64,000 nt of DNA from assembly GCA_902784805.1 (NCBI GenBank), contig CACZWD010000016.1, forward strand, positions 16,754 through 80,753. The letters run 5' to 3'. The translations under genes were made by a program, and so were the position numbers. Below are positions 25,477 through 25,778 of this stretch, in pieces. The notes under the pieces were generated by a model, which saw only the letters and a list, made by a program, of their open reading frames with translations, had not been told where the DNA came from and made no database searches. This stretch comes from an uncultured Ruminococcus sp. Its GTDB lineage: Bacteria > Bacillota > Clostridia > RUG12999. Position 1 is the first letter of the stretch. Every line of letters starts with the position of its first letter.

Positions 25477-25778
25477 CATCTCAGAATTTTTACATTTTGA
25501 GAGTTTCAGAGCGCTGGCAAACTCGGTCTAGCGCAAGCAATTTTATTGTTTTTGAATAAAAATGCTTTTTTTGATTTTTTATTTGATTGTATGTTAGCGG
25601 CGCGGTTTTTTCTGAAACCGCGCCGCTGCTTGCTTTCCGCCCTTTAAACCTCTACCGTACCTTTGTACGCCGACGAGATTTAAAAGACGAGATATACCTT
25701 CGTTTCCCAGCCTCTGCTCAGACTGATGACAAATTCATCAGTCTGAACCTCTCAAAATTTTTACATTTTGAGAGGTTT
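25477..25778. repeat. copy 2 of the non-coding repeat element: core 25507-25747 flanked by about 30-bp direct repeats of a hairpin (25477-25506 and 25748-25778)
   Basis: The core aligns with 16793-17009. It has an extra 24-bp insert and AT-rich variable segments. The flanking hairpins (c[ac]tctca[ga]aatttttacattttgagag) differ from those of copy 1. Confidence 0.8.

Follow-up and report, generated by a model that had tools for sequence, protein, structure and literature searches.

The DNA analysed here, referred to throughout as the window, is a 64-kb (64,000-nucleotide) stretch of the genome of an uncultured Ruminococcus sp. (contig CACZWD010000016.1), and its neighbourhood is that of an ordinary sporulating Clostridia chromosome, with a spoIIIA operon, spoIIR, sleB-ypeB, and genes for SLH-domain proteins. 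Two copies of a short non-coding element lie on its + strand. Copy 1 (16793-17009; 217 bp; E=1.4e-52) is situated downstream of spoIIIAH, and copy 2 (25507-25745; 239 bp; nhmmer E=4e-69), which runs from CAGAGCGCTGGCAAAC to CATCAGTCTG without transposase remnants, lies downstream of ypeB. The two are 85% identical over their aligned positions. An earlier note on this DNA, which had recognised copy 2 as a further copy of the element, quoted two long conserved blocks; within the window these are present at two places only, and in none of 100 shuffles. A profile search found no third copy in the 64 kb. We conclude that the sequence at 25507-25745 is very probably a non-autonomous transposable element of the miniature inverted-repeat kind (MITE), derived from a DDE insertion sequence (IS) of the IS1182 family, of the ISCno1/ISCbo5 type of Clostridia.

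Both copies are bounded by direct repeats that touch the element without a gap, and each repeat folds into one hairpin, as the earlier note had proposed in describing a different local hairpin duplicated at each copy. For copy 2, the left repeat (AACATCTCAGAATTTTTACATTTTGAGAGTTT; 25475-25506, + strand) abuts the element start and the right repeat (AACCTCTCAAAATTTTTACATTTTGAGAGGTTT; 25746-25778, + strand) follows its end, together forming a 32/33-nt direct repeat with three differences. The right hairpin is intact and, together with the CCAAATTTTT that follows it, terminator-like; the left one is a decayed copy of a terminator hairpin, now severed from the T-run. For copy 1, the 26-bp direct repeat GGGGCTGTGAGTTTTGTCACAGCCCC is perfect (16767-16792 and 17010-17035, + strand), and its right-hand unit, followed by ATTTTTT, likewise scores terminator-like. 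A further GC-rich hairpin without a T-run (GGAAGGGGTTCCGCCCCTTCC) is present at 25443-25463, downstream of the stop codon of ypeB and ahead of copy 2's left target hairpin.

The possibility that the two window copies resemble each other by chance, or stem from a recent segmental duplication, draws on the similarity itself and nothing more, and we regard it as practically negligible. The flanks are unrelated and each carries its own duplicated hairpin, as the earlier note had also argued, the copies are 15% diverged, and ~20 further copies occupy unrelated loci of other assemblies. The length difference between the two copies calls for a correction. The 24-bp segment ACGAGATTTAAAGGACGAAATATA, previously taken for an insert in copy 2, is missing from copy 1 at 16961-16962, and because it is present in all 12 of the other family members that span the region, as well as at the copy 1 locus of the same strain in another metagenomic sample (L020, which also shows a 1-nt T-run difference), it was lost recently by copy 1 rather than gained by copy 2. 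The locus is thus polymorphic for a deletion of very recent date, with which copy 1 lost the 3' arm of an internal helix, S5.

Beyond the window, a scan of species-representative genomes identified three true loci, two in a Ruminococcus metagenome-assembled genome (MAG) and one in a Clostridia MAG from goat rumen, while a metagenome scan contributed 15 further loci and one extra copy was found in L045/L044, giving a total of ~20 independent copies. One candidate from the genome scan, L004, was a chance match and was excluded. All copies found belong to rumen-type Clostridia or Ruminococcus assemblies; blastn searches of phage and plasmid collections with the element and with its 5' end returned nothing relevant, and scans of viral contigs yielded no copy of the element (L024 is a chance coding match). 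In these rumen MAG and metagenome copies, the element begins with CAGAGYGCTGACAAAC. Those with a 5' end in the contig all start with a sequence of the CAGAG(Y)GCTGACAAAC type (also given as CAGAG(Y)GCTGACAAACTCGG), with minor variants in L007 and L016, and in every one of them except L016 a hairpin lies immediately 5' of the element.

All nine copies for which both ends and both flanks could be read have a target-site duplication (TSD) abutting both ends, with lengths of 26, 32, 27, 24, 26, 26, ~19, 30, and 40 bp. Each of these duplications folds into a single hairpin that spans it, so that the length tracks the hairpin and follows no fixed ruler. The target hairpins are unrelated in sequence between loci, the left flanks have no fixed motif in common, and a T-run usually follows the right-hand copy. 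The targets are intrinsic (Rho-independent-type) terminator hairpins at gene 3' ends, and the duplicated unit is the hairpin itself.

The elements themselves are 217-240 bp long, multicopy, dispersed, and without coding capacity. A tblastn search with 120 IS1182 transposases detected no coding remnants in them, and small open reading frames (ORFs) that overlap the element were rejected as coding, as they cross compensatorily evolving hairpins and length-variable loops. The terminal inverted repeats (TIRs) are imperfect, with 15 of 18 positions agreeing between the 5' end (CAGAGTGCTGACAAACTC) and the reverse complement of the 3' end (CAGACTGATGACAAAGTC). In copy 2, the 5' repeat (CAGAGCGCTGGCAAACTCGG) occupies 25507-25526 (+ strand), and the 3' repeat (TTCATCAGTCTG) is paired with its own complement (CAGACTGATGAC) to form a terminal hairpin at 25719-25745 (+ strand). 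A third copy of the end motif lies just inside this hairpin (CAGCCTCTG, reverse complement CAGAGGCTGAGAAACGAAGG), which in copy 2 is CGTTTCCCAGCCTCTG (reverse complement CAGAGGCTGGGAAACG) at 25701-25716 (+ strand), and forms the right boundary of truncated copies elsewhere. The combination of TIRs, a TSD, small size, many copies, and a lack of coding capacity therefore identifies the element as a MITE.

The origin of its ends is indicated by comparison with autonomous elements. The copy of ISCbo5 on plasmid p3BKT015925 (L026) is 1613 bp long, encodes a 454-aa transposase, has the ends CAGGCTGTTGATAAAC...GAACAATCTG, and is flanked by a 30-bp direct repeat that covers most of a terminator hairpin. 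In previous work on Clostridium botulinum group III, ISCbo5 was found inserted at hairpins at the ends of genes in every case except one (PMC3098183). A search with the ISCbo5 transposase returned thousands of relatives, named IS1182 family by NCBI and carrying PF05598, PF01609, and PF13751, and the contigs of two of them, P0116 and P0021, were retrieved for comparison of the ends. The IS encoding P0116 is 1584 bp long (ends CAGACTGCTGACAAAGTC...TTCGTCAGTAACCTG; left inverted repeat CAGACTGCTGACAAAGTCAA), and that encoding P0021 is 1579 bp long (ends CAGGCTGTTGACAAAGTC...TTTGTCATCAATCTG; right inverted repeat TTTGTCATCAATCTG). The reverse complement of the MITE 3' end (that of L002) is identical to the left inverted repeat of the P0116 IS at 18 of 20 positions, the family consensus of the 5' end (CAGAGTGCTGACAAACTCGG) at 16 of 20, and the MITE 3' end matches the right inverted repeat of the P0021 IS at 14 of 15. 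The left end of the P0116 IS is closer to both MITE ends (16/20 and 18/20) than to its own right end. Most of the aligned IS and MITE ends have the signature CAGnnTGnTGAnAAA in common, with an invariant CAG, and ISCbo5 shares the CAG..TG.TGA.AAA signature with the MITE. In these ISs, moreover, the left end folds back on a complementary stretch of its own (e.g. CAGGCTGTTGAC-AAA-GTCAACAGCCT), which is the arrangement of the MITE terminal hairpin, and seven distinct insertions of the three ISs have hairpin TSDs of 14-30 bp that abut both ends.

Because the MITE ends resemble those of the ISs so closely, a transposase of the IS1182 type could plausibly act on the MITE. The DDE transposase of this family (DUF772 + DDE_Tnp_1 + DDE_Tnp_1_6) is not encoded by the element, as expected if it is non-autonomous, and for lack of an encoded transposase the element is filed as an IS1182-family derivative and not as an IS. 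Two observations concern the autonomous elements themselves. Contigs L030, L034, L038, and L042 carry a different hairpin on each side of the IS, and represent either recombinants between IS copies or chimeric assemblies. In the P0116 IS (L027-L034), the end hairpin is followed, ~50-90 nt inside the left end, by TTTTTTT and then by TTTACA-18 nt-TATAAT; judged from this layout, the hairpin could lie directly ahead of the transposase promoter and terminate transcripts that read into the IS.

Duplications of such length are rare, but they are also known from the IS1202 family, which has a TnsB-like DDE transposase, and a MITE of that family would account for some of what we observe. Its TSDs measure 16-28 bp in Gram-positive hosts (27 bp in IS1202, 28 bp in ISSeq2, and 17 bp in ISHahy13 among Firmicutes) and show no conserved target (PMC10132070). 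However, IS1202-family elements have TGT...ACA ends with TIRs of 24-26 bp and fixed TSD length classes (PMC10132070), whereas the ends here are CAG...CTG, match IS1182-family ends at 18/20 and 14/15 positions, and adjoin duplications whose length follows the hairpin from 19 to 40 bp. We therefore consider derivation from IS1202 very improbable.

The earlier note had also reported compensatory change in the stems of the element. Between copy 1 (cagcttaatgac/gtcattaagctg) and copy 2 (cagactgatgac/(t)tcatcagtctg; 25719-25745), the arms of the terminal hairpin differ at three positions, and all three differences are compensated, in agreement with the at least three compensatory changes reported before. 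The gtac/gtac stem retains its arms with different loops in the two window copies, again as described in the earlier note. The loop of the copy 2 terminal hairpin (25731-25735) reads CAAAT where other copies have CTTTG, and is thus inverted.

Covariation was evaluated with a hand-specified structure of 58 pairs in an alignment of 15 sequences (A3), and it holds in this larger sample: 95.7% of cells are paired, compared with 33-42% when the partners are slid, and 17 of the 58 pairs have changed on both sides, a number reached in none of 500 shuffles. The signal rests mainly on three helices, and local perfect hairpins hold nearly all of it. Two-sided changes within the family affect 8 of the 11 pairs of the internal GC-rich hairpin S4 (25595-25628, + strand), which is followed by CTTGCTTTCC, 5 of the 12 pairs of the terminal hairpin, and 2 of the 9 pairs of S5 (CGCCCTTTAA / TTAAAAGACG; 25638-25689, + strand), which is 99% paired and encloses the small CGTAC/GTACG hairpin S6 (25656-25669, + strand). 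Little variation is present in the long-range helices S1 and S3, which are uninformative. Specifically, S3, in which GCAAGCA (25533-25539, + strand) pairs with TGCTTGC at 25627-25633, has seven pairs that are 100% paired, six of which never vary, and S1 can be read just as well as the match, in inverted orientation, of the internal end motif to the 5' end.

These features raise the alternative that the element is primarily a functional structured RNA, such as a 3'-UTR (untranslated region) or terminator module or a small RNA expressed with the upstream gene, or else a domesticated MITE whose core is kept for an RNA role. The real covariation and the invariance of internal blocks are compatible with such a role, as are the folding of both strands, which beats that of shuffled sequences by far (z = -8.7 to -11.4), and the terminator-like character of S4 with its T-rich tail on the + strand of both window copies. 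The co-directionality of 16 of 17 judgeable copies with the upstream ORF would also bring the + strand under transcription by read-through. Against this stands the lack of any Rfam 15 family over the element, either at the gathering score or permissively (E<=10), the best sub-threshold matches being at chance level (e.g. sau-59, 33.6 bits against a threshold of 80). Furthermore, covariation is limited to local perfect hairpins with almost no G-U intermediates: of 736 cells, seven are G-T (mostly in S3 and S4) and 15 are A-C (mostly in S1). The wobbles conflict, with A-C in S1 favouring the minus strand and G-T in S3/S4 the plus strand, and so single out no strand as RNA. S4 and the terminal hairpin are also freely lost in some copies (L006, L012, and the truncated copies), and no RNA function is needed to account for the anatomy, given the TIRs, the TSDs, and ends that match those of ISs. 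A primary role as RNA is thus improbable on balance, and the earlier interpretation stands in part: the covariation is real and selection on structure is plausible, but a free-standing RNA is unsupported and an RNA or single-stranded-DNA element in its own right does not follow, as the IS1182-like ends, the TIRs, and the TSDs explain the architecture.

With the MITE interpretation in mind, we infer that the helices showing covariation came from the parent IS as ready-made hairpins, namely a left-end hairpin and a terminator-like hairpin, and that they were preserved by selection (on end structures or terminators), by arm-to-arm templated correction, or by both. Such correction is known for quasi-palindromes. 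The near-absence of G-U steps in perfect local hairpins is what selection on DNA or terminator hairpins would give, or templated correction free of selection. Elsewhere in the window, Rfam matches at gathering score comprise a GP20-b RNA (barely over threshold), a TPP riboswitch, a T-box leader, and two tRNAs, with coordinates listed as 43434-43492, 46781-46888, 47750-48009, 36142-36223, and 44278-44350.

Hairpin targeting, a strong orientation bias relative to genes, extensive conserved secondary structure, and flipped hairpin loops (in the copy 2 terminal hairpin and in the right hairpin of L005) might also suggest an element that moves at terminator stem-loops through single-stranded DNA or RNA, either mobilised by an IS200/IS605-type HUH enzyme or parasitic on a class C group II intron. 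Yet HUH and group II systems produce no target duplication and have no TIR, and both are present here in every fully readable copy. There is no Rfam match to group II introns, HEARO, or IS605-associated RNAs, 240 nt is too small for a ribozyme, and the end sequences match those of a DDE family; such an origin would accordingly be very surprising. Among the individual families considered, an IS200/IS605-type palindrome-associated element, expected to lack TIR and TSD, to have subterminal hairpins, and to insert 3' of a fixed tetra- or pentanucleotide, was rejected on the presence of both and on the absence of a left-flank motif. A class C group II intron (domains I-VI, 5' GUGYG, 3' AY) was rejected on the absence of an intron model match, the length of ~240 nt, and the CAGAG...CTG ends. 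Cas1/casposon-like elements, integron attC sites, dif/Xer systems, IS110/IS1111 bridge RNAs, and IS200/IS605 omega RNAs all fail on the combination of TIRs, variable hairpin TSDs, and unrelated targets.

Several copies depart from the typical form. Copies that we term form B (L003, L010, L013, L014, and L045) end at CAGCCTCTG and have no terminal hairpin; in L045 (element at 3413-3626, minus strand) and L014 the terminator T-run directly follows the element. Form B probably arose by a deletion, perhaps recurrent, that skipped two adjacent hairpins, or alternatively reflects an insertion mode without duplication. Two more copies, L006 and L012, are typical except that S4 is precisely absent (AAGGTT|GCACCACTGC). 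The hairpins that flank L006 also differ from each other, as expected from recombination between copies at two loci. In L005 (around 590-630), the right target hairpin has a reverse-complement loop (CATTTG vs CAAATG) and a compensated stem change, and is followed by CAGACTG, so that the palindrome extends into the element end. In L019 (2700-3010), the element is split within an AT-rich segment by ~270 bp of another GC-rich repeat (…CCCCTATGAGGGGAAGGTGGGCGGCAAAGCCGCTCGGATGAGGTGGG…), which is a nested insertion of another small repeat family.

A number of observations weigh against the derivation of the element as a simple IS1182-family MITE. No IS1182-family transposase was found in the window or at any MITE-bearing locus examined, and no parent IS with MITE-identical ends and a matching interior was found; by blastn, the MITEs share their interior with none of the IS loci and only with another MITE copy (L045/L044). 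The four form B copies with a readable upstream flank (all except L014) also lack a second target hairpin. An exact empty site, with the same hairpin in single copy, was not found, as relatives of YpeB give only a diverged spacer. The blocks CAAACTCGGTCTA, TGCTTGCTTT, and TTTAAAYCTCTACCGTAC have remained invariant while the stems and the AT-rich segment turned over, which is more constraint than a MITE strictly needs. Finally, 16 of the 17 copies that could be judged are co-oriented with the upstream ORF (a long same-strand ORF ending 5-80 nt upstream), a bias that a symmetric DDE mechanism does not predict; L045 is one more co-oriented case, L002 is a clear exception, and autonomous ISs are found in both orientations. 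The bias could arise from selection, for example through orientation-dependent termination by S4, or from coupling to the direction of replication. Counted for the MITE reading is the absence of the element downstream of ypeB in a relative with a 95% identical YpeB (L043): the spacer there measures 170 nt, compared with 427 nt here, though its sequence is diverged and it carries a different hairpin, CGGGCGGCAACCTGCCGCCCG. Identical-protein look-ups returned only the same strain with the element present, and at the copy 1 locus a serine acetyltransferase relative has different synteny and offers no syntenic empty site.

We hypothesize that the MITE is mobilised in trans, presumably by an IS1182-family transposase, given the similarity of the ends. 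The transposase would recognise an extruded or transient hairpin, or a cruciform palindrome, by its shape and not by its sequence, and would join one element end to each DNA strand, the two joints lying at opposite feet of the palindrome. These feet would be adjacent in a four-way junction, yet 19-40 bp apart in the linear duplex, and repair synthesis over two single-stranded gaps of hairpin length would then leave the palindrome on both sides of the element. After insertion, the upstream hairpin copy would be parted from its T-run, and read-through, here from ypeB, may stop either at S4 (25595-25628), met ~90 nt inside the element, or at the downstream hairpin with its T-run. IS1272 is reported to cut the stem bluntly, with loss of part of the hairpin and no duplication (PMC4923244); this suggests that members of the family may cut the same kind of structure at different places.

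The hairpin-length duplications are the reason for proposing cruciform- or hairpin-foot integration by an IS1182-type DDE enzyme, with a ruler set by the target. The invariant blocks, the covarying helices (S4, S5, and the terminal hairpin), and the near-exclusive co-orientation are the reason for entertaining more than a passive MITE, such as a co-opted mobile terminator or 3'-UTR module or a fold needed in cis for transposition. We regard this wider reading as tentative and rather unlikely, and give a lesser chance to a co-opted function behind the conserved core or the orientation bias. We know of no biochemical demonstration in the literature of structure-guided integration with a target-set ruler, nor, to our knowledge, has an IS1182-family MITE or this repeat been described.

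For the annotation of rumen Clostridia genomes, identification of the element as a probable MITE accounts for one class of feature, 'duplicated terminators with a structured insert'. It also carries a caution, in that covariation alone is no ground for calling a novel structured RNA when the hairpins and palindromes of transposons give clean compensatory changes. The MITE copies provide a natural series of 19-40 bp duplications, each equal to one hairpin, which together with the parallel behaviour of three autonomous IS1182-family elements supports structure-guided target choice in this family, and the 240-bp element or its 27-bp terminal palindrome offers a small test substrate. Each insertion parts a terminator hairpin from its T-run and adds a terminator-like hairpin, and may thereby alter the 3' ends of operons (e.g. 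spoIIIA and sleB-ypeB).

Among known systems, several share single properties with the element. Insertion directly behind terminator stem-loops, in sense orientation to the upstream gene, is also a habit of class C group II introns, but they are ribozyme retroelements of at least several hundred nt with no TIR and no target duplication. When Cas1-Cas2 integrate a CRISPR spacer, strand transfer takes place twice, once at each border of a partly palindromic repeat, and the ensuing gap repair copies the whole repeat. The analogy is one of mechanism only, as Cas1-Cas2 are unrelated enzymes that insert DNA lacking inverted repeats and act solely at CRISPR arrays; nothing in this element points to Cas1. 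Classical bacterial MITEs (Correia/NEMIS, RUP, MITEAba12, and others) are likewise short, non-coding, intergenic, bounded by TIRs, flanked by a TSD, and dependent on a transposase in trans, whereas their TSDs are short and fixed (2-9 bp) and their targets are sequence motifs rather than hairpin structures. The long-TSD subgroup of IS1202 has in common the unusually long duplications in Gram-positive hosts and differs in its TGT...ACA ends and fixed TSD classes, neither of which is seen here.

The remaining comparisons are with the IS1182 family itself. IS1272/TnSha1 of staphylococci target terminator hairpins without sequence specificity, and some other members of the family target palindromes (PMC4923244). 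The targeting of terminator hairpins through their structure is thus shared with the present element, whereas IS1272 reportedly makes no duplication and the element here duplicates the complete hairpin. The closest likeness is to ISCbo5/ISCno1 (ISBma2-like), IS1182-family ISs of Clostridia and other Bacillota, which have CAGnnTGnTGAnAAA...CTG ends, one of them a self-folding hairpin, and which insert at terminator hairpins with duplication of the hairpin; the duplications measure 14-30 bp for the ISs, compared with 19-40 bp for the MITE. The MITE differs in being 217-240 bp long with no transposase gene or remnant, in an interior that bears no relation to the non-coding terminal regions of the three ISs compared, and in carrying an extra internal copy of the end motif and a strong orientation bias that is not seen in the ISs. 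Hairpin targeting by the IS1182 family is already in the literature, and this MITE is an uncatalogued element that shows the same behaviour, with the hairpin itself as the duplicated unit.

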